A DNA stretch of 64,000 nt, taken from NCBI GenBank assembly GCA_043228905.1, contig JBHGNT010000013.1, positions 2,604,001-2,668,000 on the forward strand, in the 5' to 3' direction. Each line of letters opens with the position of its first letter. The stretch's first letter is position 1. The notes under the pieces are model-generated. The model was not told the DNA's origin and did not search any database. It was given only the letters and a program-made list of their open reading frames with translations. Source of the stretch: Azolla caroliniana. Its lineage: Eukaryota; Plantae; Polypodiophyta. The position numbers and the translations under genes were made by a program. This document shows, one piece after another, positions 749-59,100 of the stretch.

Positions 749-1134
749 CTACAAGTAGCAATTACTAGTTTTCTTGTAAAACAAACAAAGCACATGTATT
801 GCAAATAAACAGTTTAATGGACCTGTTTGGGAGTTTCTTTTTTTCATATACAGTCTACTTTTTGTGCTTCTTTCTCAACAAAATCGTGTGTCATTTTTAT
901 ATACAATCTTCTTTCTTATATACAGTTTAATAATATTGTTTAGGGTTCTTCTTTCTGAGATACAGATTTACTCAAGTGAACCATGTACAAGTTAAAATAG
1001 TTTGAATAATTTTAAGAAAAAGCACTATCATGAAATCAGCAATCCTGAACATACTCTTAAAATTACACAGTAGATAAGTTACTCAAAACAAGCAATTTAA
1101 TTCTTCATTGATTGAGTGGTAGCAAATTACATAT

Positions 1135-2173
1135 TTATAACATCCCATTACCAATGTCTTGAAATCGTCTATAAACAGCTAAGCTCTTGTTGGTCACTGG
1201 AACTTCTCTACATATATGATCTACATATCGAGCTCGGTATGGAGTCCACAACCATGTAGCTAGTTGGCAGCTCAATGTTTTCACCAAATAGTGTTTAGGC
1301 ATTTCATCGGGTAGAATGAGACAACATCTGCGAATGTTGAAGTAATGTCGAAAATGTTCTGTATCCAAAATCAACGTATTGTCAGTATTATAATCTGGCA
1401 GTGTCCCAAAAATTAGAAAGTCTTTTGAATCTTGCAACATCATTCTACTCACAATTCTCTCATATTCATTGACCCTTGAAATGTTGTCACCACTTCAGGA
1501 AGAATCTTTCTACACACTTCCACACATCTGTATGTGGTTTTTCGCTCCAAATAAACAAATAAAAATATTGCACAACCCACTCCAGAAATTGATTTGTGTC
1601 CCTCCTTGGTGTCATATATCGCACACTCATCAAGACTTTATCAAGCTCCAAGATCAAGGCTCTTCTTTCGACTTCTAATAGTTTAGATTTCCATTCCTGT
1701 AATTGAGCCTCTGTTACACCAATTACTGATAGCACACGATCAATTTCAATCAACTCAGGTTCTATCGGCACAATTGGTGTCCTTTTCCTCTTCAAACCCC
1801 TGGTCAACTGTGTTAGGCCTAGCTTCACATTCTGGTGCTCTTGTGTTGTCGACTTAGTCATTGGCTCAATGCATGTATATACTGATCTGGACGATATCAG
1901 ACCACTGGTATCACATGTTGCATCTACCTGCAAAGTCAGATCATCTGTGCAACATGCTTGATCAATTTGCGTGACCAAATCATTTGTGTCAGTTGCTACA
2001 TCTACTTTCAAGATGTGGCCCTCTAAACATGCGGCAACATCAACAGTTTCCACACTGCCATTGGCCTTAGGAGCAATAGATTCAAACCCTTTAGACTCTG
2101 AAACATCAGAAAACACCAACATATTCACACTCACAAAGTAACTAACATTCTCACAAAACAACATAATGAACAT
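1135..2173 (-). pseudogene. FCP1/SCP (NIF) HAD-phosphatase-like cargo gene, split or degenerate, with altered catalytic motif
   Basis: RRALILELDKVL (cf. KLLVLDLDETL), PRRDTNQFLEW...FYLFIWS (cf. RP..DEFL...F.VGIWS), then SKDF...YNTDNTLILD (cf. KDL...NTLLIDD) in ORF 1135-1452. Confidence 0.55.
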
Positions 2174-2364
2174 GAAATATTTTCCATCATAGAAACATGA
2201 ACATAATTATCTTGGAGAAACATCATAGAGGTTCATTACATAATGTGGATCAAGCAACAACCAATCTGAGGTTTTACTTGTCTAAAAAGATCATAGTAAA
2301 ACTTCATAAAACCCTAGGAAAATCACTAACAATCATATCCCACTAATAAGTATTTCGCTCCAAT

Positions 2365-5229
2365 TCAAGAGCCCCTTGACCGAGTAACTGGTCTTGTCCC
2401 CGATCGTGGCCCCTTCTTCAACCTTTTTCTAGCCAGTTGCCCATTTAGCCTTGCTTCTTTGACCCATTGCGCAAGTGTGTCCTCCTCTAACAACCTTTCC
2501 ATCACCTCAGCAGCGGCTTGCAGGTCAGTCGCGTCTTGCACTAGCTTTTCCAGTACAGTGGGATCTGTTTGGCCATTATCAGTAGTTGGGCTCAGTGGGG
2601 TGGAATCAAGGTTTTGGGATTCGAAGAAATGTTGCATCAAGTCTTCAAAAACACTATTGTTGTGAACCTCAGATTTACATGATGTTTCCAATATTTCATG
2701 GCTTTTCACATCGTTGCCTAATTCATTACCATCTTCCAAACGAATAGGGTGGAGCTGATCTGACGGAGATGTGATAGCAGGACTCTTACTTTCAACCACG
2801 TTGGCAACTATCTCCTCATCGGTTGCAGCGTCATCAGCACCAAACAGCTCATATGCCCTCCTTAATCCACAAGATTCTACAACAACATGGTTGCTAATTA
2901 GCTACATCTTAGCTAACTAGCTATTCTTCTAGACTATGACAGTAGCTAATTAGCTACCACTAAGCTAATTAGCTACTTCGCTTAGGTATGGTACTACCTA
3001 ATTAGTTTCTCAACTAAAGTATGGTACTAGCTAGTTAGCCACTATAACTAAAGTATGGTAATAGCTAATTAGCTACTACTTACATAATTAGCTACTCTAC
3101 TAAAGTATGGTAGTAGCTAATTAGCTAAGTGGTGGCTAATTAGCTAACTGTTAGCTAATTAGCTACTATACTAAACTATGGTAGTAGCTAATTATCTACC
3201 ACTTAGCTAATTAGCTATTGTACTAAACTATGGCAGTACCTAATTAGCTATTGTATTAAACTATGGTAATAGCTAATTAGCTACTCAGCTAACGTATGTT
3301 AGTAGCTAATTAGCTACCACTTAGCTAATTAGCTATTGTACTAAACTATGGTAGTAGCTAATTAACTACCACTTAGCTAATCAGCTACTGCACTAAACTA
3401 TAGTAGTAGCTAATTAGCTACCACTTAGCTAATTAGCTATTGTACTAAACTATGGTAGTAGCTAATTAGGTACTGTACTAAACTATAGTAGTAGCTAATT
3501 AGCTAATGTATTAAACTATGGTAGTAGCTTATTAGCTACCACTTAGCTAATTAGCTACTCATCTAACGTATGGTAGTAGCTTATTAGCTACCACTTAGCT
3601 AATTAGCTATTGTACTAAACTATGGTAGTAGCTAATTAGCTTCCACTTAGTTAATTAGCTACTCATCTGAAGTATGGTAGTAGCTAATTAGCTACTGTAG
3701 TAAACTATGATAGTAGCTAATTAGCTACCACTTAGCTAATTAGCTACTCAGCTAAAGTATGGTAGTAGCTAATTAGCTACCACTTAGCTAATTAACTACA
3801 TGTTAAGTAATTAGCTACTACACTACAACCATAATAGCTAAATAGTTTCCACACTTGATACAGCTTACCTAATTAGCAAAGATGGAACTAATTAACTACA
3901 CTATGGTCGCAAGCAACAATTTTACCTGTGTGTTTTCTCCACTCATCTGGGAGAGTTGTACTACAATCCCCCAAACAAAATGCAGCAATGCGACAGGCAT
4001 ATTGAAAACAAACGATATGGTATGTGTGTTGGCATGGTTGTAGATGAACCAACAAAGTAGCAGATTTGTCCTCTACACGTAGTAATCCACAAGCGATGCA
4101 ACGTGCTTGAACAGTCAATATATTGTTTCCTAGTTCTCCTTCATTTGGTAAGGGGGCAAGAATGTTCAGGTCCAATTCTTGTCTGCTCCTTACAATCCCC
4201 TCTACAAAATGTAGCTGCTTCTTAATGCAGCTAACTACCTGTTCTTGACGGGAGTATTGTTCCTTCAACGCAACCGAGAAATTCACCGATTAATTATACC
4301 TTAATGAGGAAGATACAACAACAAGAAACAAGAATCATTAACTTACTTGTAGCTTTTCCAAATTATAATCAGCGACAATATTTACACCTAGAAGGTCTAG
4401 GTTCATTGAAAGAACCTGGATCTCTGTCTGCAATTGAATTTTCCGTTGGGGATCCAATGACCCCTCAATTTCAAGTTCATGTTGAGCAACCTGTTCCAGA
4501 TAATGCCTTAGTAGCACATTTTCATGTACAAGTTATTTATAACATATTACATACTAGCAAAACAATAGGTACCTGAATCTTATTTCTGATTGTTGTAACT
4601 GCCAAAGTGACTTTGCTCTCCATCGCAGCAACCAATGTTGCTTTCTCTAAATCAGTCTTAAAAAACTCCAATGTCTCATAGGCTTCATGGACATTTTTTA
4701 GAATATAGCTAATCAATGTCTCACCTGTATCATCGACATTGGCTTTCATTGTGTGTCGGTGTGGCGTATACTTGCGGGTTTGTTGGGAGTCGGCAGTTGC
4801 ATCAACTGCCATGCTCCAAAATCTTGCCATTTTTTGTTGCAAGCTCCCCATCTTCCGACATCTTTCTACCGATGCCTCACCATAAATTGCCCAAGCTACC
4901 CTGTACATTTCAAGGTCACGAGATTCCTTCGTTGTTTTGCAATACTCGTATGCAAAAGCTCTGGCAAATGAAACGGACAACTCATTGTTGATCGGGATCT
5001 CTTGATGTACTTTTTGGTGCAGTCTCATGCCATCGTCGTACACCGGTCGTACATGCTCATGCTTGAGCTTGACCTTGCCTTTCACTCTAGGCACTTTATA
5101 TACTGACATCCAGTCTACATCACTAATCAATCTATCTGTTAGAACAGTAGGGTCAATACCCTCAAGCGACAGACCATATATGTTGTGAAAGTCCTCCTTT
5201 GTCTCGCAAAATTTTGCGAAGTTCAGCAC
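2365..5229 (-). CDS. Multi-exon cargo gene with RING-H2-like finger (exons ~4573-5229, ~4387-4525, 3926-~4286, 2365-2876); partly degenerate
   Basis: CxxC...CxHxxHxxC...CxxxC in ORF 3888-4286; phase-1 GT-AG intron 3925-2877 joins it in frame to ORF 2365-2799; upstream junctions are imperfect. Confidence 0.5.
2890..3875. repeat. ~1 kb irregular tandem array of palindromic TAGCTAATTAGCTA with ACTATGGTAG/CCACT spacers
   Basis: Dozens of visible copies of the self-complementary 14-mer. Confidence 0.95.
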
Positions 5230-9173: not shown

Positions 9174-9306
9174 TGTCAGGAACTCTATTAAGGCAGAGAA
9201 GGAATTAGTACTAAAGGAAGGATTAGTACTATTGTTGGGGAATAGTACTAAGACAGAGAAGGATTAGTACTATGAGAGGTGTCGAACTTTGAGAGAAGGA
9301 ATGAGT

Positions 9307-9354
<48 letters not shown>

Positions 9355-9644
9355 TGATGCGAAAGATATATGTATTATATGACGGAAGATATACAACAGT
9401 AGTTAGAAGGCTTAAGACTGGCGTTGAACCGATTTGGTTCGAACTAATGCCTTGCGCCTCCTTTTATAGTGTCTTCAGGAATACTCCTGAAGTTTCTAGA
9501 ATGTTCCAGAGAAATCTGGAATATACATCAATTTCCTAATAAAACCTAAATGAAAATAATATCCTTCAAATTACAACTCATAACCTAATGGTAAAGTCTC
9601 GACCCGTGTAACAAAAGGTTATGGGTTCGAGTCTAGTTATGACA
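9174..9644 (-). repeat. 3' LTR of chromovirus (471 bp)
   Basis: Direct repeat of 14481-14953; preceded on the minus strand by PPT TTTAAAGGGGGGATAG. Confidence 0.97.
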
Positions 9645-11223
9645 CTATCCCCCCTTTAAAACGACGAGTTTCACGAGTCGTTTTGGATTGAGGACCCGGT
9701 TTCTCGGGATATCGTCGATGGAAGTCTTCTAGAAGAGCACGAGCATTGGTCACATTCTCGATCGGTTCCCAAGTACGCTCGCTGGGACTATATCCTAGCC
9801 AATCGACTAGATAGTAGAGCTTGTTGCGAACAATCTTGGAATCGAGGATGGCAGCGACCTCATACTCAGGTCCATCTTCGAGCTCGATAGGAGGTGGAGG
9901 TTGTATAGTACGTCCTGGGATAGTGCTCTCGTGATAGGGTTCGAGGAGAGAACTATGAAACACCGGGTGTATCCGAAGTTGCGGAGGTAGCTCGAGACGA
10001 AAAGCGACATCATTAATCTTCCCGATAATACGGAAAGGACCTAATCGTCGATAATCCAACTTCTCACATGGGCGAGTAGTCTTGATGTGTCGTCGTAGCA
10101 GCCACACCCGATCTCCAATGTTAAAACTGGATGGAAGTCGATGACGATCTGCGTAGTCCTTGTGTGATTGTTGAGCTTGCTGGAGTTGAGTAGATAAATC
10201 CGCTTGTATCTTGCGTAACCGCTCCAAACGATCCTCCGCGTAAGGATTTGTGGACACTTCTGGGGTTTCAAGGACACACCACCGGGGATGATATCCCGTA
10301 TAAGCGTAGAATGGCGTGACTTTAGTCGATGCGTGGATAGCGTTATTATAGGCAAATTCGGCGAACGGAAGAATATCTGCCCAGTCATTCTGATGATAGT
10401 TGAGAAAGCACCGCAGATACTGCTCCAGTGTTTGATTTGTTCGTTCGGCTTGACCGTCGGTTTGTGGGTGGTAGCCGGAGGAGAGGTTACAAGTGACCTT
10501 CAGCATTTTAAAAAGGTGCTTCCAGAATTTTGACACAAACTGGGGTCCACGATCGCTGATGATATTATCAGGGAGTCCATGATGCCGACATACTTCCCGC
10601 ATGACAATTTCGGCGGTGTCTTCACTAGATATTTCTTTAGTACATGGTAAGAAATGAGCCATCTTCGTATATCGATCCACCACTGTGAGAATCGCACTGA
10701 ATCCCTTAGAGACTGGAAGATCTGTAATGAAGTCAAGAGCAATGGATTGCCATGGCTTGCTTGGAATTGGTAATGGTTCTAATAAACCATATGGATGATG
10801 TCTTGGCATTTTCGCTCTGCAGCATGTATCGCAAGTCCGAACAAAATCTTCGACAAATTGTCGCATACGGGGCCACCAGAATGATCGTTGTACTAAATCT
10901 AATGTTTTAGTACTACCAAAATGTCCTGCTGTATATGTGTCATGGCAGTTTTGTACTACTCGAAGGCGGCAAGAACCATTAGGAACATACAAAAGTTCTT
11001 TAAAGAAGAGTAATCCATCACAGTATTTGAATTGCCGATAATCCGTACCTGGTGATTGTGATTGTGAACATGACGCTCGAGAGGGGTCAATTTGTGCTAG
11101 TATAGCTTGGGCGAAAGCGTCAGTCTTCAAGTCCTCACGTATAGTATTGGTAATGTCGGAATCCACGGGCATGTCAAAGATCTGTGCTGCTTGCAGTCGT
11201 GCTGGACCCAAGATTACTTGCTT
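9637..11223 (-). CDS. pol: Integrase (HHCC, DDE, GPF) plus chromodomain; in frame with upstream pol beyond a single TAG
   Basis: HDTYTAGH...CDTC, WQSIALDFITDLP, ISDRG, HPQTDGQAERTN, LGPFRI, EYEVAAILD...YLVDWLGY...TWEP. Confidence 0.93.
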   Translation of the reverse strand, partial: KQVILGPARLQAAQIFDMPVDSDITNTIREDLKTDAFAQAILAQIDPSRASCSQSQSPGTDYRQFKYCDGLLFFKELLYVPNGSCRLRVVQNCHDTYTAGHFGSTKTLDLVQRSFWWPRMRQFVEDFVRTCDTCCRAKMPRHHPYGLLEPLPIPSKPWQSIALDFITDLPVSKGFSAILTVVDRYTKMAHFLPCTKEISSEDTAEIVMREVCRHHGLPDNIISDRGPQFVSKFWKHLFKMLKVTCNLSSGYHPQTDGQAERTNQTLEQYLRCFLNYHQNDWADILPFAEFAYNNAIHASTKVTPFYAYTGYHPRWCVLETPEVSTNPYAEDRLERLRKIQADLSTQLQQAQQSHKDYADRHRLPSSFNIGDRVWLLRRHIKTTRPCEKLDYRRLGPFRIIGKINDVAFRLELPPQLRIHPVFHSSLLEPYHESTIPGRTIQPPPPIELEDGPEYEVAAILDSKIVRNKLYYLVDWLGYSPSERTWEPIENVTNARALLEDFHRRYPEKPGPQSKTTRETRRFKGGIVS

Positions 11224-13233
11224 CTAGTTATCGAAAGCTGGCTCACCGGGACGTGGTGTTAGATACGAACGCCGTGATAATGCATCTGCCTTCCCTTGGT
11301 GCTTCCCCGGACGATATGTAATTTTGAAGTCGAAGCGTGTGAGGAAATGGGCCCACCGAGCTTGACGTCGATTCAGTACACGAGCATCTTGAAAGTAGGC
11401 AAGGTTCTTGTGGTCACTGAATACAGTGACTTGATGAGGAGATCCCTCCAGGAAATGCCTCCATTGCATAAAAGAATCAACTATTGCTAATAGCTCTTTA
11501 TCATGAATTTCGTAGTTGATTTCGGCGGCGTCAAACTTACGGGAGTGGAAAGCCACAGGATGTAGCTTCTCGTCGTTACCCTGTTGTGACAGAATGCTCC
11601 CCAATGCAAAATCCGATGCATCAGCTTCGATAATGAATGGTTTTTCCGGATCCACATGACCTAAAATTGGAGCTGATGTAAACGCCTTCTTAAGACTCTC
11701 GAAAGCCATGTCCGTCTCTTTAGACCAAATGAATGATTGTCCCTTCCTGGTGAGCTGTGTGAGAGGCAGCACAATTTTTGAGTAATTTTGTATGAACTTC
11801 CGGTAGAAATTTGCAAAGCCTAGGAAGCATTGCACATCCCGCACCGAACGCGGAGTGTGCCATTCTATCACCGTTTTGACCTTGGCTGGGTCCATAGATA
11901 TGCCTTCTGAGGAGATGACATAGCCGAGAAACTCCACTTGGTTGCACCCGAAACTACATTTCTCTAACTTTGCATACAGACCATGTTCTCGAAGTCGTTT
12001 TAGTACTAATAGTACATGAGAATCATGTTCTTCTTGGGTCTTTGAATAAACCAGTAGATCATCCAAATAGATGATCAAAAAATCATCCAAGAGGTCTCGA
12101 AATATATCATTCGCCATGTGCTGGAAGACTGCCGGCGCATTAGTGAGTCCGAACGGCATGACCGTATACTCGAAGTGCCCATATCTGGTGCGAAACGCGG
12201 TCTTCCATTCATCTCCTGGTCGGATCCGTACGAGGTTATAGGCTCCTCGTAAGTCGATCTTCGTGAAGAACCTGGCACCGTTGATCCGTTCTAAAAGACT
12301 TGAGATAAGGGGAAGAGCATACCTATTTCTTACGGTGACCTTATTCAAGCCACGGTAATCTACAACGAGTCGAAGCGAGCCATCTTTTTTCTTGACGAAG
12401 AAAATGGGTGCGCCGGCTGGAGATTTCGAATGCCGAATGAAACCGTTCTCCAAATTCTCCTCTATATAGGCTCGAAGGACTTCTAGCTCGGTTGGTGACA
12501 AATTGTAGATCGGCCCCCATGGCGGCTCTTTTCCCGGTTGTAAGTCGATGGCGCAGTCGTACGGCCGATGATGAGGAAGTGTGTTGGCTTGTACTTTATC
12601 GAACACAGCAGCATACTGACGATACTTCTCGGGAAGTTGAACGGTGGACTCCTCTTTGGTGGTGCTGGAGGGTTGTACTGATATTGCAAAGAGAAACATT
12701 TCCTCCTTGCGCCCTTCCTCACGCAACTGACGTAGCGAAATGGTTGCAACCTTCTGGGTAGATCCTTGGGTTTGTCGCAACCGGATTTCCCTTGTCCTCC
12801 AATCTATGTCTGGGTCATGTAACTCGAACCATGGTAATCCTAAAACTATGGGATGTTCTGGAATACTAATAATATTAAATGATACTACACATGTTAAGTT
12901 ATCTAGGACAATATTAACGGGTTCCGACTCTTCTATGATATTACCAGAAGCAATGGGACGACCATCAATGACTACTACTGAGGCTGGACATGGGAGCTTT
13001 CTTAGAGATATCTGATGAGCTCGGGCAAAATTCCTATCCATGAAGCAAGAATTAGCTCCGGAATCTAGAAGGGCTAAGGTATGTACTGGAGGGGTACTTT
13101 TAGTACTAACTGCTACTTGGACTACGAACACATCACTAACTTGCTTAGAGGGAATGGAACCACTAATGGGCTGCACAGATCTAGGGCTGTCCAACCAAAC
13201 GGCTCCTATTTTGGCTGGACTTAGTCGTTTAAC
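11224..13233 (-). CDS. pol: Pol: aspartic protease, reverse transcriptase and RNase H (-1 frame relative to gag)
   Basis: [57 protein letters not shown]. Confidence 0.95.
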   Translation of the reverse strand, partial: VKRLSPAKIGAVWLDSPRSVQPISGSIPSKQVSDVFVVQVAVSTKSTPPVHTLALLDSGANSCFMDRNFARAHQISLRKLPCPASVVVIDGRPIASGNIIEESEPVNIVLDNLTCVVSFNIISIPEHPIVLGLPWFELHDPDIDWRTREIRLRQTQGSTQKVATISLRQLREEGRKEEMFLFAISVQPSSTTKEESTVQLPEKYRQYAAVFDKVQANTLPHHRPYDCAIDLQPGKEPPWGPIYNLSPTELEVLRAYIEENLENGFIRHSKSPAGAPIFFVKKKDGSLRLVVDYRGLNKVTVRNRYALPLISSLLERINGARFFTKIDLRGAYNLVRIRPGDEWKTAFRTRYGHFEYTVMPFGLTNAPAVFQHMANDIFRDLLDDFLIIYLDDLLVYSKTQEEHDSHVLLVLKRLREHGLYAKLEKCSFGCNQVEFLGYVISSEGISMDPAKVKTVIEWHTPRSVRDVQCFLGFANFYRKFIQNYSKIVLPLTQLTRKGQSFIWSKETDMAFESLKKAFTSAPILGHVDPEKPFIIEADASDFALGSILSQQGNDEKLHPVAFHSRKFDAAEINYEIHDKELLAIVDSFMQWRHFLEGSPHQVTVFSDHKNLAYFQDARVLNRRQARWAHFLTRFDFKITYRPGKHQGKADALSRRSYLTPRPGEPAFDN

Positions 13234-14390
13234 TCTTCTTCTAATTGGCTAAGGACATCAAATTTGTTTGCGAGATTCGGACTATTAGTACTATTAGGAC
13301 TATTATGACTATGAGGATTATCAGAGATTCCTACTGACATAGACTCGGGTTTAGTATAGTCAGAACTAACAATGACTTGGTTTACCTGCCTTCTTGGTCT
13401 ATGGGGACAGTTTATCGCGATATGCCCTGGTCCACCGCAATAAAGGCATAATCGGTTTGTTCGGCGTCGTTGCTTTTCCTCCTCCGATAGCGGCCCACGA
13501 CGACGTGTAGTGTCAATTTCCATTGGAGTTGGAGTACTTACTGGAGGCGCATTATGTGACTCCCTTTGAAAAGGTTTCGCTACCATTGAGGCATAGGTAG
13601 GCTCGGATCTTGCCCTCGGCATCTGGAATTGTCGTTCCGAACGTCGCTCGAAGAGGCGGTTGTCACATCTGACCGCTCGACTGATTGCTTCTGTTAATGA
13701 TTTTGGCTCTTCAGGGAAAGTCAAGAGTAAATCCTTGACATCGTTGCGTAGACCATAGCGGAACTGCTCCATCAATGCTTGATCATCCCAGGGGATATCG
13801 GCGGCGAGTAGGCGGAAATCTGCAGCATATGCGGAGGCTGGACGGTCACCTTGGCGTAATCGCCGGATTTTGTTGATTGCAGTCCTTATGCTGTCAGTAT
13901 CTCCAAAACATGCTTTAAACTCACTTATGAATTCTTCAAAATTATTTAGTACTGGAGATTCCTTTTCTAGTAGCGGTGCGAACCATGCTAATGCTGAGCC
14001 AGTTAACAACGTGCCTACTAAACCCACTCGTGATGCATCGGTGGGATATCGGGACGGATGCATTTGAATAACTAACCGTACCTGGTTAAGAAACCCTCTA
14101 AACTGCGATCGCGTTCCATCGAACTTCGTGGGAAGGCCAATCTTGGGTTCTTTATGAATCCCTTGTGCTCCGTGCCCTTGTTGCTGCATTGCTACGATGG
14201 TTGCTTCGAGTTGTTGCACGCGTAACGCAAGTTCCCCATGCTGTTGTTGCGTTTGCTGCTTTTCTAAGGAAATTTGCTGAAGATCCCCCAACAAGCGTTG
14301 ATTTTCTTGTTCCAAAGCATGAAACTTCTCTTTCAAGCATTGAAATTCCGAGAAAACGGATTGATACTCTTCAGCGCTAACGGTGGCCAT
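13221..14390 (-). CDS. gag: Gag (PEG10/RTL1-like capsid, coiled-coil N-terminus, CCHC knuckle)
   Basis: KEPKIGLPTKFDG, LRQG..A..YA..FR, PMEID, CLYCGGPGHIAINC. Confidence 0.95.
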   Translation of the reverse strand: MATVSAEEYQSVFSEFQCLKEKFHALEQENQRLLGDLQQISLEKQQTQQQHGELALRVQQLEATIVAMQQQGHGAQGIHKEPKIGLPTKFDGTRSQFRGFLNQVRLVIQMHPSRYPTDASRVGLVGTLLTGSALAWFAPLLEKESPVLNNFEEFISEFKACFGDTDSIRTAINKIRRLRQGDRPASAYAADFRLLAADIPWDDQALMEQFRYGLRNDVKDLLLTFPEEPKSLTEAISRAVRCDNRLFERRSERQFQMPRARSEPTYASMVAKPFQRESHNAPPVSTPTPMEIDTTRRRGPLSEEEKQRRRTNRLCLYCGGPGHIAINCPHRPRRQVNQVIVSSDYTKPESMSVGISDNPHSHNSPNSTNSPNLANKFDVLSQLEEELND

Positions 14391-14480
14391 GGGATGAAGG
14401 AAAAGGGAAATAAGAGACTAGTAGGAAAGGAGAGAGACAGAAGGAAGAGGGAGACTAGTAGGAGGGAAATCGGTTCAAAC

Positions 14481-14613
14481 TGTCAGGAACTCTATTAAGG
14501 CAGAGAAGGAATTAGTACTAAAGGAAGGATTAGTACTATTGTTGGGGAATAGTACTAAGACAGAGAAGGATTAGTACTATGAGAGGTGTCGAACTTTGAG
14601 AGAAGGAATGAGT

Positions 14614-14663
<50 letters not shown>

Positions 14664-14953
14664 TGATGCGAAAGATATATGTATTATATGACGGAAGATA
14701 TACAACAGTAGTTAGAAGGCTTAAGACTGGCGTTGAACCGATTTGGTTCGAACTAATGCCTTGCGCCTCCTTTTATAGTGTCTTCAGGAATACTCCTGAA
14801 GTTTCTAGAATGTTCCAGAGAAATCTGGAATATACATCAATTTCCTAATAAAACCTAAATGAAAATAATATCCTTCAAATTACAACTCATAACCTAATGG
14901 TAAAGTCTCGACCCGTGTAACAAAAGGTTATGGGTTCGAGTCTAGTTATGACA
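14481..14953 (-). repeat. 5' LTR of chromovirus (473 bp), TATAAAA at 14777-14771
   Basis: Direct repeat of 9174-9644. Confidence 0.97.
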
Positions 14954-15574: not shown

Positions 15575-16666
15575 TGTCGTAAAGATTTTTGCCAACGGTG
15601 TGAAAATTGAATGGAATGTACGAAATCAAGTGAGGTTCTTCACACACAACATAAAACAATAATAGTGAAGATACTATTTTATACTAGTTTAATATCTTGG
15701 CACAAAAAAATGGAGGTCTTCACGAGCTTTCGAATACACTTTACCACATAAGAAACGGACAACTAAATGGCAAGTTATGTGGGTATAAAGTTTGCAAAGA
15801 AGAAGAGAAAAAACAAAACTACGAGATATCCCACATAGACAGGACAAATAAGGATCCCAAAGTATATAAGCAAGGCCAAAATGTATTGCTTTGTGTTTAT
15901 GAGTGGATCATAGAATATTCAAGGTGACTTGAGCTAAACTAATCGGATAAATGGGTGTGCCCTAACTACTTGTAAAGTTTTTGGTTGACCAGAACCGGAC
16001 GGAGTCGGCGAGGCGGCGGCTTCGCGATCAAGACCGGGATTGGATGGCGATGGACAGGATCAAATCGAGATCGGATTGAACCGATCGGGACAGACAGATC
16101 GGTCGGTTGAACACGGTGTATGGTGTTTTGAAGATTTTTGGTGTAAATACAAGACCAAAAGCCTAGTAGTATTTTGTGTTTTAAAAGGGATATGAGCAAG
16201 GCTTGAACCTTGCACCTCCAAGATAGGAAGCAATATACTTACCACTAAGCCAAGTCATTTCCTTAGAAATTATATTTTTATCATTATACTTTTACATGTA
16301 AATTCTCATACATGAGAGCTTAGATCAAGCATGCATTTCATGCATTACGTGCATGTCTTGCACCCTCACATGCACCATATGCATGGGGGCATCTATAAAA
16401 GAGTGGAGGAATCAAGTAAATGAAACTAATGAAAAATTTGGGAAAAATAAGAAACTTGTAATCCTATTGTTGATGTATCTTCTCTCTTAAATCTAAAAGT
16501 TAAAAGTTCAATCTTCATCTCAATATCTCTCTTTCGTCATATCAATATCTCTCCATCTATCTTAAATACTTTCTCACTAAAGTTAGTGCAAACTTCGAAT
16601 GCTTCCGGTCCAGGACCCCGGTGATTCTGCCTCACGATCCGCACGTGGTGACGGATATTCACGACA
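15575..16666. mobile_element. Probable solo LTR (1092 bp)
   Basis: TGTCGT...ACGACA termini; 4-bp TSD ATGT/ACGT; host reads LPPKR|NIDRHIDI across it; TATAAAA near 16394. Confidence 0.7.
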
Positions 16667-29984: not shown

Positions 29985-31728
29985 TACACCATAGAATATT
30001 TCTAGAATACACTAAAGGCTCTAGAATATTTTGGAATGTATATATGATAGAATATACGATACTCTATTATAAATACATGCTCGTATCCAGATGGTTGAGT
30101 ATGAAGTCTTGTAGATGTGAAGATGCAGGTTCAATCATCACTAACTACATATTTGACGTCAATGTGTCGTGACATTATCCTCCTCTTTACGGTCGTCGCT
30201 TCAAAAGCGTGGTGTAGGGGTGGACGGGAATTGGAGCACTAACAGGCGTGAGGAACCATATGTTCTCCTCACCAGAGACTAGAACACCAACGGACGTGAG
30301 CGTGGTGTAGGGAGGGACGGGAATTGGAGCACTCACAGGCGTGAGGAACCATATGTTCTCCTCACCAGAGACTAGAACACCAACGGACGTGAGCGTGGTG
30401 TAGGGAGGGACGGGAATTGGAGCACTCACAGGCATGAGGAACCATATGTTCTCCTCACTAGAGACTAGAACACCAACGGACGTGAGTGTGGTGTAGGGGT
30501 GGACGGGAATTGGAGCACTGAAGGGCGTGAGAGACCATATGTTCTCCTCACCTCCAAGACAAGAACACCATGTACGGTCCTCGTCGAAGATTAGAACCCC
30601 GGCAGGTGTGAGCAACCATGCATGGACCTTCATTGGAAACTAGAACATCGAAAGACGTTTAGAATGGGAGTGTGAGTGGCCATGTGGTTCACACCAGGAA
30701 TTGGAATACGAACATGAGTGAGTGACCATCTTGTCCTCACCGAAAACTAGAACACAAATGGGAGTGAGCGACCATTCGGTCCTTATCGAGAATTGGAACA
30801 CGAACATGTGTGAGCGACCATGCGGCCCTCACTGGGAACTGGAACATGAACGGGCGTGAGCGACCATGTGTGGCCCTCACCAGGAATTGGAACGTGAACG
30901 TGGGTGAGGGCCGCATGGTCGCTCACCCCCGTTTGTGTTCCTGTTCCAGGTGAGGGCCGCACATGGTCGTTCACGTCGTTTGGTGTTCCACTTCCCAGTG
31001 AGGATTGTACATGGTTGCTCACGTCCATTGGTGTTCTTGTCTACGGTGAGGACTGCACATGGTAGCTCACCCTCATTCACGTTCTAATTCTCAGTGAGGG
31101 CCACACATGGTCGCTCATGCCCGTTCGTGTTCTAGTTCCCAGTGAGCGACCATGTTCTAGTCTCCGGTGAGGAGAATATATGGTTCCTCACGCCCGTCAG
31201 TGCTCCAATTCCCGTCCACCCCTACACCACGCTTTCGAAACGATGGTCGTAAAGGGGAGGATAATGTCACAACACAATGACGTCAAATACTTAATTAGTG
31301 AGGATTGAACTCGCAACCTCACATCTACAAGACGTCATGCTCAACCATCTAGATATGAGCATGTATATGTACATGATAGAGTATTGTATATTCTAGCATA
31401 TATACATTCCAAAATATTCTAGAGCTTTTAGTGTATTCTAGAAATATTCTATGTTGTATTCTAAACGGGTATATTCTAGAGATATTTGTTAGGTATATTC
31501 TAGAGATACTAAATCTCAGAACTTGTATAAATACTTGTAACCTCCTTGGTCTCTTTCCAGGGATTCAACACTAGTCATTGACACATCAATCTAGTATTCT
31601 CGTTTCATTCCATCTTTGCTCCTTCATCTCTGTCTTCATGTTTATGTGTCATTCCAAGCTTCGTAAGTTCCACTCGTAGCCCCATCAGTCGTGTTCCATC
31701 TGAGCCTGCAGTTGGTGTGTCCGTGACA
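29985..31728. mobile_element. Non-autonomous chromovirus-type LTR structure with inverted arms: LTR fragment (-) 29985-30174, internal repeats, LTR (+) 31265-31728
   Basis: 29985-30290 is the reverse complement of ~31155-31460; each arm has PPT AAAG(G/A)GGAGGATAA then TGTCAC; right LTR ends GTGACA. Confidence 0.8.
30207..31160. repeat. 93-bp tandem repeat (~3.7 copies) followed by ~60-bp repeats that reverse orientation near 30915
   Basis: Repeats appear as LTPVSAPIPVPPYTTLTSVGVLVSGEENIWF in ORF 30187-30633; units contain GTGAG..CCATG..CTCAC. Confidence 0.85.
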
Positions 31729-36679: not shown

Positions 36680-37330
36680 AAGGTAGGTTGGTGTTCTCAA
36701 TTGATGCAACAAACTAAGATATTTATTGGGAGAGTTATGGTTGGAGCTTTACCATTGGGGGATGCATTAAAAAAAAGAAACATTACTAAAGGATCGTGTT
36801 TCTTTTGTCCAGTGGAAATGGAACATAGTAAGCATCGATTTCTTTCATGCTCGATGGCAAGGATGGTTTGGAGGTGTGGATGTCTCTAACTAGAGTAAGC
36901 CTATCTTCCTTCAGTTAGGTTTTTGCACATATGGAGAACAATGAACCAATGCCTCATTTCCATATTATTTTTGAGTTCTTGAGGTATTGGGGGGCTATGG
37001 TTCAATTGGAATATGCGGAATACCTTCACTTTTGATTCACAAGTTGGGGTGAGAAAATATGTTCTAAAGTTAAATGACTTCTTTTGTGGCAATTGACAGT
37101 GCTAGAGAAGTCATGAAATCTAAACCATGAAGAGAGAGAACTTTGCAATGTCACATATTATCATATTTGCCATTTGAATTGGTGTGTAGGGTGGCAATGA
37201 GTTTGGAGTCATAATAGTCTTTAGATCCCTAGATAGAAGGGTTCTATACTTTGTAGTAAGTTAATCATGGTGATATTTTTTCTTTTGTAATAAAAGCCAT
37301 TATTTACAAGATATATATATATATATAAAG
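36680..37330 (+). mobile_element. L1-type LINE 3' fragment (zf-RVT domain) next to a (GA)n tract
   Basis: KIFIGRVMVGALP...SCFFC...EHSKHRFLSCSMARMVW and W..WNMRN motifs; AATAAA then simple-repeat tail. Confidence 0.7.
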
Positions 37331-37583
37331 CATTTGGTAAGCTTACCCAATGGAGACCAAGCAGTCATGGGTTCAACCCCTACATTCCACAATGGCATCT
37401 AGTGAATATAGTCTTTAGATCCCTAGATAGAAGGCTTTTAGTCATGGTGATATTTTTTCTTTTGTAATAAAAGCCATTATTTACAAGAGAGAGAGAGATA
37501 TATAAAGCATTTGGTAAGGTTGCCCAATGGAGACCAAGCAGTCATGGGTTCAACCCCTACATTCCACAATGGCATCTAGTGAA
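37213..37583. repeat. Local ~180-190-bp tandem duplication containing a SINE-like B box
   Basis: ATAGTCTTTAGATCCC...GGGTTCAACCCC...TCTAGTGAAT occurs twice. Confidence 0.8.
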
Positions 37584-41045: not shown

Positions 41046-43831
41046 ATGTCTGTAGTAACACAGGATGTGTTCACACTACGGCGTCCCCAGGCCAAGATAT
41101 CCGACCTCCTAGTCTTCTTCAGCCTGCCGAAAGACTACTTGACTATGATCAGGACACATTTTCTATACAAGAAGGATCCATGGTGGCCTTTAAGGTTCTT
41201 CAAGTCAATAGCTCTCTTGGTATCCATGGTTATACTAATAAGCTCGTCTCTGCTGTATGGCTCAGGTGTTCTCCTAGAGAGAGCTAATTACTTAGGGCGG
41301 CAATGCTTCGATGTAAAAGGAAACACAGGGATCGGTGGACACAACCCGAGTGCCAAACGCTACAAATTTGCGATGGTTACATGCCAAGATGGAGGAAATG
41401 GTGTTCCAGGAAGGTCTTTCGAGGGCCTGTCGGAGTTAGTTACACCTAATAAGGTTAGCTATGCTAAGAGACATGGTTATGAATTCATTGATGCCAGTCA
41501 TCTTCTCGATCGGAACCGGCCCCCTAGTTGGAGTAAGATCTTGGCCGTCCGTAAATATCTTGCTGATTATGATTGGGTGTTCTGGAATGATGCGGTAAAA
41601 TCGCATCTCTTATTGATCTCCCACTGTTCTTTTTTTTTCTGGGATTTGTTTTTCGATATCTTTCATTAGAGTTTCAAAAAAGAAAATCTCAAAGTTCCCT
41701 TCATATTGGGTATGATATGGAACTGCCCTTCAAGGTTTTTGGAAGTTATCAAATTATGCCTCTTGGTTAATGCCGTTGGTGTTTTTTCTGGGCATTAAAT
41801 TCCCTTCATTTTATAAATTGGAAGGTTTTGGAAAAATACTATACCCTTAGTATGTTTGATAAAGATTGAGTGCCAGTTTCATCATCTTTAATGAAAGGGA
41901 AAATTTTGGGTGTAAATATAATGAAGAGAGTATACCCTTGGAAGGTTTTGGAAATACCAAATTGGTAAACATGATGAATATTTAGCGCCAGTCAGCATAT
42001 ATCTTTAAAGGGCTCTAAAAAACCTTTTTCTGTGCTGCCATGGTTACATAGTTATGACGGAACTGCCTCCAATTTTTGCATCACATTTATTTTTATGTGG
42101 TTGGTGGTTGCATTGCCTGATTTTATCTATTATATAGACATACATAGTGTGCATTTATGAGCTAGTTAAGACATACATAACACATACATAGTGAATTACC
42201 TCAAAATATGTGCGTGTCTGTGCATGTACATACATATGTACATATAGATGTCTGTAATTGTGTTTGCCTGATTTTATCTATTATATAGACATACATAGTA
42301 TGCATTTATGATCTAGTTAAGACATGCATTTATGATCTAGTTAAGACATACATAACACACACATAGTGAATTACCTCAAAATATGTGTGTGTCTGTGCAT
42401 GTGCATACATATGTATAGATGTCTGTAATTGTGTTGTGATACATTGTATCGTACACATTGAATTGGAATCCTATATCCTATATTCTTTTTATTCCATATT
42501 TTATCTCCGAATGGCCCCCAGGGTCCCAAATCAGAAGATGAAAACAATGCAGAAAAAGAATCCAATAATACAAAACTGCAAAGTTTAACTTTGCTTTTCA
42601 AAAAAAAAATCTTATTTTTACTGTTTCTGTTTAGAAACGAATGTCTTCAACAATAATCCCTTTGTTATCTTCTTTGCTTATGGTTGTGTACTTGTTTTTT
42701 ATTTGGGTTTTTGCAGGATTCACTTGTGACAAATCCAACAATTGCACTGGTATGTTTTTGACAATCCGAGATTTCTTTAGTTTCCTCTGTAGAATGAGAT
42801 TATCGAGTTATTAAGATCTTTGGTCTTTAATATCACCTCATTCTATTCGAAAAATAGGAGGACATTATCAAATCAGTGGTTGGAAATAAGAAATTCAATG
42901 AGATGCCCGATTCCATAGTTACAGAGGATGTCACGGGTGTAAATGCAGGTATATAGACTGCATGTTAACGTGTGTATATATGTACAATGTGTATGTAAGC
43001 ACATGTATGTGTGGTGTGTGTGTGTGTGTGTGTATCCATGTGGATATATGAATGTGTTTGTGCACCATTATACTGTTATTGTTTGTGTATGTAGTCTATA
43101 TAGACTCCATGTCTTGTATGTATGTATATATGTGTGCGTGTGTTTCTATGTATCTTATACAGGGTCCTTGTCTATATCGGCCACTTGGGTGCCGCTCAAA
43201 CTCTTATGTAGCTTCCATTTTTTCTGTTTCTAGTGCACATAATACATGCATGCACTCCTGACACCTTGCAGGGATGTTTTTCTTCCGGAACTCTTCATGG
43301 AGCATGCAGTTTCTAGACCTTTGGTGGAACCAAACATCATTCATCAGGCCCTTTGGTCAGAAGAAGAGTGGTGACAACGATGCCCTCAAGTTCCTGATAA
43401 GAAACATGCCTGATGAAGAACGCAAGCGACATGTCAGAATTCCCAAAATGCAGTGTGTCTTCAATTCCAATCTTTGGCAGCCTTCATTAAAGAGTGGTCA
43501 CAGACTGGTTACTTTAACAAGGACTGTATGGCAAGGTTGATCTAATTGTTATGTCTGTGTTTATTGTATGCGAAACATATACGTGTAATATGTATGTATA
43601 ATGTATTCTATAAATATGTGTGTGCATTGTGTAAATATGGGGGAAGGACCTTTTCATGTTCTCAAAAATGTGATGCCAGGTGTTTATTCTAAAGGCGATT
43701 TCATGGTGCATCTGGCTGGGTTGAATGACAAGAAGACATGGATAAAGAAGATCCTTCGGGACATCCAAGAGGAAGAGAAAATGAGCGAAAAACGGAAACA
43801 AGCAAAGAATGTAGACTCCCATCGCCACTGA
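41046..43831 (+). CDS. Glycosyltransferase family 34 (GMA12/MNN10-like); exons 41046-41594, 42717-42749, 42858-42948, 43272-43535, 43680-43831
   Basis: N-terminal TM anchor, NKVSYAKRHGY, RPPSWSKILAV, YDWVFWNDA|DS (DxD), EDVTGVNAG.FF.RNS.WS, GDFMVHLAG; all introns GT-AG with matching phase; probable 5' UTR intron from ~40417 to 41041. Confidence 0.92.
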
Positions 43832-48696: not shown

Positions 48697-48843
48697 TATT
48701 ACGGGCAATGACCATATAATATCCCGTGGTAAGTTTTACTGTAGTATTTTATACACTTGGATAAAGTGTGAGGGTTAAAGGAGAGTGTAAAGAATACTAC
48801 GGTAAAACTTACCACGGGATATTATATGGTCATGCCCGTAACA
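48697..48843. mobile_element. 147-bp miniature inverted-repeat element with ~55-bp TIRs and 5-bp TSD CTTAC
   Basis: TATTACGGGCAATGACCATATAATATCCCGTGGTAAG...CTTACCACGGGATATTATATGGTCATGCCCGTAACA; CTTAC at 48692-48696 and 48844-48848. Confidence 0.85.
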
Positions 48844-56166: not shown

Positions 56167-59100
56167 TGTCATGAATACATAAACATCATGTCTTCACTTG
56201 GGCTTGAACCCAAGATCTTGTAATACATAATCAACAACCCCACCATTAAGATAGCCCATGATCATATGAGATGATAAAAGCTACTTCTTGTAATACGTTG
56301 ATTATTGTAAATACTCTGGAACATTCTAGAACATCCTAGAACATCTTAGAATATTCTAGGTGAAGAACATTCTAGAACATTATAGAAATCTCTAGGCTAT
56401 TCTATGGGAACCTATAAATAAGGGCATACATGAACTCCCAAATCAATTCAAATCAAACTATCAGAACCAAGACAGAAGATAGAGTGACAGAAGAAAGATA
56501 TATCGAAATCACAAGAAGAGGAATGAAATGATAAGAGAAGAATGAATGTATTAAAGTAGAATGAGAATGGATACAAGATAGGCGATGAGAGCAGGATAAA
56601 GGAGAGAGAACAGGATAAAGGAGAGAGAGAAATTCGAATCAAACTCCATAATTTCGTGATGTTTATACAACAGTATAAAGGAGAGAGAGAAATTCGAATC
56701 AAACTCCATAATTTCGAGGAATTTGTCAAAGAATTTAAAGCTTGCTCTGGAGATATAGATGGGGCAAGAACAACGATCAACAAGATTCGTACACTACGTC
56801 AAGGTGATCAGCCAACATCGACATATGCCTCCAATTTTCGTCTCATTGCAAACGATATTCCTTGGGACGAACAAGCCCTAATGGAGCAGTTTCGTTCTGG
56901 TCTTCGTAGCGATGTAAAAGACTTACTTCTTACATTCCCCGAGGATCCAAAATCTCTTACAGAAACTATTAGTCGAGCAATACGATGTGATAACCGTCCT
57001 TTTGAGCGTCGATGTGAACGACAACAACAAATAACAAGGTCAAGATTCACACCAACTTATGCATCAGTAATGACGCAATCATCTCCAAGGCAAACATATA
57101 GCCTTGCACCAACTCCGAGGCAACCATGTAGTCTAACCCCAATGGATAGGCCTACACCCATGGAGATCGATATGCCGCAACGATGTCGAGCAAACCGTCT
57201 ATGCTTATATTGTGGAGGTCAAGGCCACGACGTTAGGTAAATCAAATTCACTATGACAATAAAACTGAGTCCAACATTTTAGAAACACTTAGTGATCCGA
57301 ATGTTATGAATAATCCACCCTTGTCCAATAAGTTTGAAGTCCTAAGCCAATTAGAAGAGGAGTCAAACGAATAAGTCCGGCCAAAATAGGAGCCATTTGG
57401 TTGGACAACTCTAGATCTATACAACCTAGTGTAGGTTCCATTTCTTCCAAGCATGTTAGTAGAGTCTTCTGAGCCCAAGTACAAGTTAGGACACCAAGTT
57501 GTCAACTTCAGGTCCAAGCCCTCTTAGATACCGGTGCCAATTCTTGTTTCATGAATAGAGATTTTGCCCAAAAACATCAAATATCCTTGCATACCCTTCC
57601 TTGTCCGGTTTCTGTAGTAGTAATTGATGGACGTCCTATAGCTTCTGGGAAGATATTCAAAGAGTCTGAGCCAATCCACATACTCTTAGGTGATTTAGGA
57701 TGTGTAGTTTCCTTTAACATAATACGCAACCCCGAGCATCCAATTGTCCTTGGTTTGAGCTACATAACCCAAGAATCGATTGGAGGAGCCGAGAAATTTG
57801 GTGCTCTTCATCAAACAACATCATTGCTAAGGATTGAACCCAAGACTCTTCCCTTAAAGAAGGTTCTACCACTGCACCATCTCCTTTTCATCAAATCTCA
57901 ACCATTACATTGCAACAATTGTCCTTTGTGGGAGGAAAGGAGGAACTTTTCTTATTTGCAGTATCAGTGACACCTTCTAGTGCCACTCAAGGGAATTCAT
58001 ACATCCAAATTCCCAAAAAATATCAAGAATATGCTGATGTCTTTGATAAAGTCAAAGCTAGTGCACTTCCAAATCATCGACCGTACGACTGTCCCATTGA
58101 TTTTCAACTAGGAAAAGAGCCACCATGGGGTCCGATCTACAATTTATCACCAACTAGGCTTGAGTTTCTTCGAAAATACATCGAGGAGAATCTTGCACAT
58201 GGGTTCATTGGACATTCGAAGTCTCCAGCCGGTGCTGCCATATTTTTTGTGAAGAAAAAGGACGGTTCGATTTGTTTGGTCATGGACTATCGGGGATTAA
58301 ATAAAGTCACCATAAGAAATAGGTATGCTCTACCTTTAATCTCCAATCTTTTAGAGTGCATTGGTGGGGCAAAGAATTTTACAAAAATCGATTTAAGGGG
58401 TGCATATAATCTAGTTCGAATTCGATCGGGAGATGAGTGGAAAACTACATTTCACACTCAGTATGGTCATTTTGAGTATACAGTCATGCCTTTTGGGCTC
58501 ACAAATGCACATGTAGTTTTCCAACATATGGCAAACAACATTTTCCAAGATTTTCTGGATATCTTTCTTATCATCTATTTAGATGATCTGCTGATTTGCT
58601 CGAAAACACAGGAGGAGCATGATATACATGTTTGGAAAGTACTTGAACGCTTAAGAAAGTATGGTTTGTATGCCAAACTTGAGAAGTGCAGTTTTGACAA
58701 CGAACAAGTCGAATTGTTGGGTTATACTATTTCATCCAAGGGTATCTTCATGGATCCAGCAAAAGTCAAAACAATATTGGAATGGCAACCCCCACGTTCT
58801 ATTCGAGATGTCCAATGTTTCCTTGGCTTTGCTAACTTCTATTGCAAATTCATATGGAATTATTCAAAGATAATGTTGCCTCTCACCCAACTCACCAAGA
58901 AAGATCAAGCATTTGTTTGGACTAATGAAGTGGACATGGCCTTTACTCAGCTCAAAAAGGCATCCACATCAACTCCTATCTTAGCGTATATTGATCCCGA
59001 AAAGCCATTTACTATTGAGGTGGATGTGTCAGATTTTGCATTGGGGATGTTGAGATACAAGCTCAACATTGGCCGGATCGGCTGTGCAAGCCGAGAACCG

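Follow-up and report, generated by a model that had tools for sequence, protein, structure and literature searches.

An antisense tRNA-derived A/B-box module at the U3 tip of Tcn1-type chromoviruses in a fern

Retrotransposons of the Helenus/TRIMp3 type carry a tRNA-derived sequence in their long terminal repeats (LTRs), in which boxes A and B are the best-conserved parts and no functional tRNA is left (PMC10886601). Their origin has been proposed to lie in the insertion of a SINE into an LTR, and the available text of that study gives one plant case, from Selaginella (PMC10886601). Helenus elements are short, non-autonomous, and tRNA primed, and, going by the supplement sequences, their tRNA part lies on the sense strand and transcribes the element. 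The survey (Kojima 2024) screened TRIMs only, noted that "not a few LTRs" in Repbase have similarity to tRNAs, and expected autonomous elements to rely on Pol II (PMC10886601). Cassandra, found in plants, and Ajax also hold a Pol III promoter inside their LTRs; these elements are non-autonomous, and their promoters are 5S derived and drive the elements' own transcript (PMC10886601). The foamy virus LTR miRNA cassettes are A/B-box Pol III units in an autonomous Pol II retroelement; they form hairpins, end at T-run terminators at the stem base, and are transcribed and processed (PMC3993851). The Pol III promoter of the B2 SINE acts as a chromatin boundary linked to CTCF and, in the available text, is neither described as a built-in part of an LTR nor shown in plants (PMC8136502). 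Tcn1 chromoviruses, in the available parts of three accounts, are reported from mosses and Selaginella and not from ferns (PMC2864245, PMC6317226, PMC7466625).

We analyzed a window of 64,000 nucleotides (nt) from the fern Azolla caroliniana (the window being the whole stretch of DNA analyzed, to which all positions refer unless a contig is named), in which Tcn1-type elements were observed. One of them, element A, has in each of its LTRs a tRNA-like stretch that includes boxes A and B, as Helenus does, but it is 5.8 kb long, coding, and self-priming and has its own TATA box, and its module lies antisense at the U3 tip in all copies. It differs from Cassandra and Ajax, which are 5S derived and non-autonomous, and from the foamy virus cassettes in that the module is tRNA derived and antisense, forms a hairpin in one family, and has a variable terminator. 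With SM-Tcn1 and RLG1, element A shares the gag-pol-chromodomain layout, the aromatic cage, self-priming, a 5-bp target site duplication (TSD), an LTR of ∼450 bp, and, by eye, the R-start motif (PMC2864245, PMC6317226, PMC7466625), whereas the U3 of both, inspected by eye and for RLG1 over the first 400 nt, is without an A/B module. The antisense orientation, the place at the U3 tip, and the autonomous, coding, self-priming host appear to be what is new here; in a search of mostly open-access literature, which did not extend to Repbase, we came across no autonomous Tcn1 element or fern LTR described with an antisense A/B module at its U3 tip. A preceding sequence-only reading had proposed an undescribed system; since tRNA-derived LTR promoters have already been described for Helenus, the module is better seen as a variant than as an undescribed kind of system.

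Element A (9174..14953, minus strand) is full length, flanked on both sides by the 5-bp TSD CCGAC, and its LTRs (3′ LTR, 9174..9644; 5′ LTR, 14481..14953; both minus) differ by 0 mismatches over 471 aligned positions and one 2-nt indel. Between them, all on the minus strand, lie gag (13221..14390; PF03732, PF19259, and zf-CCHC), protease-RT-RNase H (11224..13248), and the integrase with chromodomain (9637..11223; PF00665 and PF00385), separated from protease-RT-RNase H by an in-frame stop in this copy; the domain search thus gives the Ty3/gypsy order PR-RT-RH-IN with a C-terminal chromodomain. The integrase frame crosses the polypurine tract (PPT; 9645..9660, minus) and stops inside the LTR. 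The primer binding site (PBS; 14467..14478, minus) can pair over 12 nt with the predicted R start (14733-14744), as in self-priming. Inspection of the chromodomain revealed the residues of the aromatic cage (criterion from PMC6317226), a chromodomain type tied to methylated H3K9 (PMC5006619), and the combination of cage and self-priming sets Tcn1 apart from other plant chromoviruses (PMC6317226). By eye, element A resembles SM-Tcn1 in gag, pol, and the R-start motif; the integrase tree, built without named Tcn1 references, was largely unresolved. Going by layout, cage, PBS, and by-eye likeness, we class element A as a young, recently active, self-priming Tcn1-type chromovirus. SM-Tcn1 has been reported to lack evidence of self-priming, yet in its sequence (PMC2864245, supplement S3) a 15-nt complement between the stretch after the 5′ LTR and the R region is visible by eye. 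Upstream of the PPT of element A (9655-9690), a doubled short motif, whose silent positions are kept across relatives, forms a small hairpin ending in T4; it probably reflects an older cis signal with no connection to the module.

The module of the 3′ LTR lies on the plus strand at 9581..9633 (A box, 9581-9591; B box, 9624-9633; spacer TGTA at 9607-9610) and ends 11 nt from the U3 tip, and that of the 5′ LTR (14890..14942, plus) points outwards into the flanking host DNA. From the tip, the order is B box, A box, AT-rich stretch, heat-shock-element-like array, TATA box, and R, a divergent layout in which the Pol II TATA box of the 3′ LTR (9462..9469, minus) faces the opposite way, 112 nt from the A box; the same distance is 171 nt in copy 2 of LTR family C (C2) and 160 nt in family D. 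The AT-rich stretch with a CAA upstream of the A box (9547..9580, plus) is a putative TFIIIB loading position; it is kept within family A and not across families (z 1.1). Between module and TATA box lies an nGAAn array (9489..9511, with perfect 3-unit arrays at 9489 and 9494), which we take to be heat-shock-element-like. Such TTCTAGAA arrays are common to LTR families A, C, and D (9489-9511, 56314-56388, 30000, and 31436), suggesting that all three have heat-responsive promoters. The LTR of the moss element RLG1 also shows a motif of this kind.

A pattern search recovered the five A/B pairs that the sequence-only reading had listed, at the same coordinates and strands, with offsets of 43-44 nt and antisense to the LTR direction. 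Four further A/B-like modules (16252, minus; 37678, minus; 37326, plus; and 37503, plus) had been missed. That reading's own pattern gave 5 matches versus 0 in shuffles but was fitted to these very sites. A relaxed general A/B pattern matched 5 times in the window (A twice, D, 16252, and 37678, family C not being among them), against a shuffle mean of 0.275 and maximum of 2 (40 shuffles). With a weight matrix built from 179 real tRNAs, the B box of which was partly fixed by the search pattern, A scored 24.8, D 23.2, the related contig locus L007 23.0, and the site at 16252 26.2, compared to a best shuffled score of 20.5 (10 shuffled windows); C2 scored 14.4, no better than shuffles, and copy 1 (C1) fell outside the top 16. 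Fungal-like and copia LTR controls were without a module by the weight matrix (best score, 11.9 in 15 control stretches). The shuffled controls thus place the A and D modules beyond chance, and not those of family C. A Thr-tRNA profile matched C2 at E 5e-4, a partly circular result. The sequence features of a type 2 Pol III promoter, A and B boxes at tRNA spacing with fixed positions intact, are present in A, D, and L007, with C borderline.

None of the modules was called as a tRNA by the Rfam tRNA models or ARAGORN, although the true tRNA of contig L037 (1046-1117) was detected by Rfam at 39.6 bits. The acceptor stem is lost, leaving about tRNA positions 8-61, the span of the internal promoter, so that the proposed tRNA mimicry is not supported. 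A functional tRNA gene, considered as a candidate, was rejected for the same lack of calls and of a cloverleaf with acceptor stem. Nor is there a free-standing tRNA-derived SINE, as no TSD, body, or tail of its own surrounds the module inside the LTR. The donor isotype is tentatively Thr: 118 of the 120 matches of the module skeleton in viral loci are tRNA-Thr(TGT), but the search pattern forces a TGT anticodon by its geometry, and mean spacer identity to Thr(TGT), at 0.55 to 0.66, is not clearly above that to other isotypes. Further tRNA-like units occur in host contigs (L025:4985-5062 and 570-646, L037:1046-1117, and L003:2930-3000) and comprise a strong hairpin-forming unit, a SINE-like one, the Rfam-true tRNA, and an LTR tip with the B-box half only. 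In the window, the site at 16252-16199 (minus), which has the best A/B score of all and is followed by a T4, lies in a 1.1-kb insert with short inverted ends in a gypsy pol (15576-16660), 142 nt from a TATA box facing the opposite way, the divergent layout again in an unrelated repeat, a putative LTR. Degenerate tRNA-like relics stand outside recognized LTRs at 37326-37383 (plus), 37503-37560 (plus), and 37678-37625 (minus); the first two may derive from the donor SINE.

The boxes had been attributed to three chromovirus families, an assignment demonstrated for A only: C has no coding sequence in the window, and D adjoins a gag fragment without a PBS. Family C is represented by a Tcn1-like PPT and R motif only, in C2 (31265..31727, plus; TG...CA, preceded by a PPT; module on the minus strand at 31355-31302, weak by weight matrix) and C1 (29987..30174, minus, interrupted by a copia LTR; module on the plus strand at 30084-30137). 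These appear to be two 3′ ends (tandem-repeat 3′ UTR, PPT, and LTR) meeting in an inverted junction at 29987-31727, 89% identical and without coding sequence. In family D, for which the coordinates 56167..56460 (plus) cover U3 and the R start, the module is on the minus strand (56253-56200) and homologous to that of A; D pol is 70 to 72% identical to A. D-type LTRs (56440-56700; L035:143-367) are purine rich after the R start in a way that looks like an inverted U5/PBS, possibly a family-fixed inversion between self-primer and PBS, seen in two independent copies. Other LTR elements have inserted 97 and 111 nt upstream of a module A box (window 29987, in C1; L035:368-694), a copia in C1 and an A-type solo LTR with TSD in the D-type LTR of L035, and these two cases could hint at an insertion preference upstream of Pol III sites.

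The intervening sequences had been described as not alignable between families. A sequence model trained on 15 family-A tips, however, matches L007 (E 3e-8) and D (E 9e-4), and on sequence comparison the modules of A, D, and L007 are homologous and alignable, with an anticodon arm one base shorter than in real Thr tRNAs, which that of C is not. These three would go back to a single capture. The family-A model missed family C, the module of which may be a separate capture. TGTA stands 13 to 14 nt before the B box, at the place of the anticodon, in 8 of 9 spacers examined, and A and D have an exact 18-mer in common inside the heat-shock-element-like array.

Relatives were fetched from metagenome contigs by the integrase end, giving 52 loci, 28 of host type, 20 of which reach the LTR as judged by eye. 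The family-A model matches 19 of these 20 LTR-bearing host-type loci (14 used in training), always antisense; it finds nothing in L008, where no module was seen within 62 nt of LTR, or in any fungal-like locus. Among old low-coverage copies, L015 and L018 are without an A box and the D-type LTR of L035 is without a spacer. Searches of viral contigs returned no relative, and genome contigs gave 3 distant loci. DNA contigs point to a large, diverse family (786 to 4,277 pieces per run; with 40 of 129 variant sites listed, they did not enter the conservation counts below). By eye, no A/B module is present in the whole LTR of the lycophyte SM-Tcn1 or in the first 400 nt of the LTR of the moss RLG1, which we take to be a Tcn1 element. 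The module therefore looks like a gain in a fern sub-lineage.

Whether selection has acted on the module can be judged best from A and L007, since C and D were picked for their boxes and only this comparison is free of circularity; L007 was fetched by integrase rather than boxes and was not in the training set. At four-fold sites, A and L007 are 0.34 identical (random, 0.28; ∼1.8 changes per site), and A and D pol give 0.39 and 0.31. The A-L007 boxes are nevertheless 82% and 91% identical and the spacer 64%, compared with 53% for the 40 nt upstream, which do not rise above shuffles (z 0.4). Among A, L001, L003, L004, and L007, none of the 10 consensus-fixed box positions, which we take from the tRNA box consensus, is variable, compared to 6 of 11 degenerate box positions (p 0.009 for fixed versus degenerate) and 43 of 83 positions in other U3; without L007, the four closest lineages give 0/10, 4/11, and 38/149 (p 0.055 and 0.045), all p values being guides only, as the fixed positions follow a general box consensus and the rows (the window copy and four high-coverage contigs) are related lineages. 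The spared fixed positions include a CpG, A-box position 10 varies freely, and the box-to-box offset stays at 43-44 nt while the B box lies anywhere between 10 and 36 nt from the LTR tip.

The objection that the boxes might be no more conserved than the neighboring U3 holds within family A (16 rows, many of them old copies), where they reach 0.81 and 0.87 and other U3 0.80 to 0.87. Across A, L007, C2, and D it does not: the boxes stand out at 0.80 and 0.71 (6 of 6 pairs above shuffles), compared to 0.59 for the spacer (2 of 6) and 0.58 for the 40 nt upstream (3 of 6). Conservation extends, too, to the stretch that holds the heat-shock-like array (5 of 6 pairs). Because the boxes are kept while silent sites are near chance, the module has likely been maintained by selection, as the sequence-only reading had supposed, support coming from the distant lineages (A-L007 boxes and fixed positions). 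Exchange of U3 between families could mimic such conservation.

An antisense RNA of ∼100 nt over the PPT, which had also been proposed, was rejected as a conserved product. The first T4 past the B box of the 3′ LTR is indeed at 9681, but among 16 relatives it follows the B-box start by 7 to 11 nt in 8 (before the PPT), by 35 to 62 nt in 7, and by 909 nt in 1, and in C2 by 565 nt. Poly(A) reads of a related species (three runs and one contig set, mostly chimeric; sparse, at 107 to 142 reads per run) fall on both strands without a start pile, poly(A) reads being of a kind that cannot test Pol III transcription. The family-A module folds into a single extended hairpin (z −2.9 to −6.3 in A, L001, L003, and L004); the fold is weak or absent in L007 (z −1.1), C1 (0.4), and D (0.0), and a conserved cross-family hairpin was accordingly rejected.

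From the sequence, we consider it about an even call that the module is the head of a captured tRNA or SINE that has been retained for TFIIIC/TFIIIB binding, on the side of the Pol II promoter that faces outwards. A tRNA gene or tRNA-type SINE would have been the source, in a single capture within the fern lineage. At the U3 tip, facing away from the element, the module would offer TFIIIC and TFIIIB a place to dock on the DNA, the retained boxes and spacing letting TFIIIB load towards the Pol II promoter. The chromodomain integrase would insert the element into heterochromatin, against which the docked factors are predicted to hold the outer promoter flank open. Some Pol III RNA is probably made, which would be a by-product, as its length is not conserved; the retention of boxes and spacing with a variable T4 position favors a role at the DNA level. 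Yeast tDNAs act as chromatin barriers. By extension from these and from SINE boundaries (PMC8136502), a barrier role is plausible, and we infer more broadly factor binding with a barrier or nucleosome-excluding role. A docking site sits less well with a spacer that is conserved beyond silent sites and keeps TGTA, which factor binding alone does not explain, and with SM-Tcn1 and RLG1, which thrive without the module. The unexplained spacer keeps two RNA-level alternatives alive.

One of these, in our estimate unlikely, is that U3 is read by Pol III into a short antisense hairpin RNA, which would tune the element or act as a decoy for RNA silencing. It would explain the spacer conservation and has a precedent in the A/B-box Pol III miRNA cassettes of simian foamy virus (SFV) LTRs (PMC3993851), and the long hairpin of family A does pair 86.7% of cells, a level that 7 of 500 shuffles also reach. 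The stem runs straight into T4 in the L006/L011 subfamily, which predicts an RNA of pre-miRNA size; the foamy-type geometry, with the terminator at the hairpin base, is seen in this one subfamily only. Against it, neighboring U3 windows fold comparably (z −3 to −4), consensus fold energies of −9.76 and −9.62 for the opposite strands give no strand preference, the double-sided changes, mostly in one pair, are matched by 74 of 500 shuffles, so that covariation is not above shuffles, the terminator is not conserved, and the fold fails outside family A. The other, which we regard as distinctly improbable, places the function in the genomic RNA or cDNA at reverse transcription, either as an anti-tRNA site by the PPT that anneals to the D and T arms of a tRNA or as a hairpin governing plus-strand priming or the processing of ends. 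HIV-1 U3-R holds a tRNA-Lys3-like sequence and the Ty3 primer site is bipartite, which are analogies for the anti-tRNA form. The place right after the PPT, the antisense orientation, and the spacer conservation would all fit, and A, L001, L004, and L007 have exact runs of 15 to 18 nt in common with fetched tRNAs, 13 letters of which are built into the search pattern. The self-priming of element A (12-nt PBS/R match), however, leaves no tRNA on minus-strand DNA to bridge; moreover, nothing complementary to the tRNA 3′ end is present, runs in C and D are only 9 to 10 nt, the family-A self-hairpin would compete, and a normal PPT is present.

The module might instead be carried along as a passenger, having arrived in U3 as a SINE or tRNA relic and spread by U3 exchange or repeated insertion, a reading to which we assign a similarly small likelihood. 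Because tRNA-like relics are common in the genome (four more in the window and two in L025), this has to be weighed; two that lie outside recognized LTRs, at 37335 and 37512, reach E ∼0.01 with the A model, the boxes decay like the rest of U3 within family A, and the outgroup Tcn1 elements lack the module. It is at odds with a module 64 to 91% identical between A and L007 with silent sites near saturation, with the sparing of fixed positions, CpG included, in five young lineages, and with an offset kept though flanking lengths change. Beyond the preferred docking-site reading, a fuller version appears rather doubtful, in which a heterochromatin-seeking lineage would use TFIIIC and TFIIIB on an outward Pol III unit at the LTR edge to wall off a heat-inducible Pol II promoter, the unit of the youngest family having turned into a gene for a hairpin RNA.

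Chromoviruses whose chromodomain reads methyl-lysine enter silent chromatin yet need transcription, and a portable Pol III boundary would be a testable answer. If the module does act against silencing, each insertion would endow the fern genome with two more Pol III boundary sites, which may attract other elements, a large repeat family would scatter TFIIIC sites, and tRNA-derived LTR promoters would extend from short parasites such as Helenus to autonomous elements, with another job. If it is only a relic, it would still mark out a fern-specific Tcn1 sub-lineage and would give rise to false tRNA-like annotations. Elsewhere in the window, we observed a palindromic 52/118-bp tandem array (2887-3852), a 145-bp near-perfect inverted repeat (48698-48842), and a fragment of a host gene for a glycosyltransferase of family 34 (∼41145-41594), the best named match of which is from Ceratopteris (70%), ahead of lycophytes, liverworts, and mosses.
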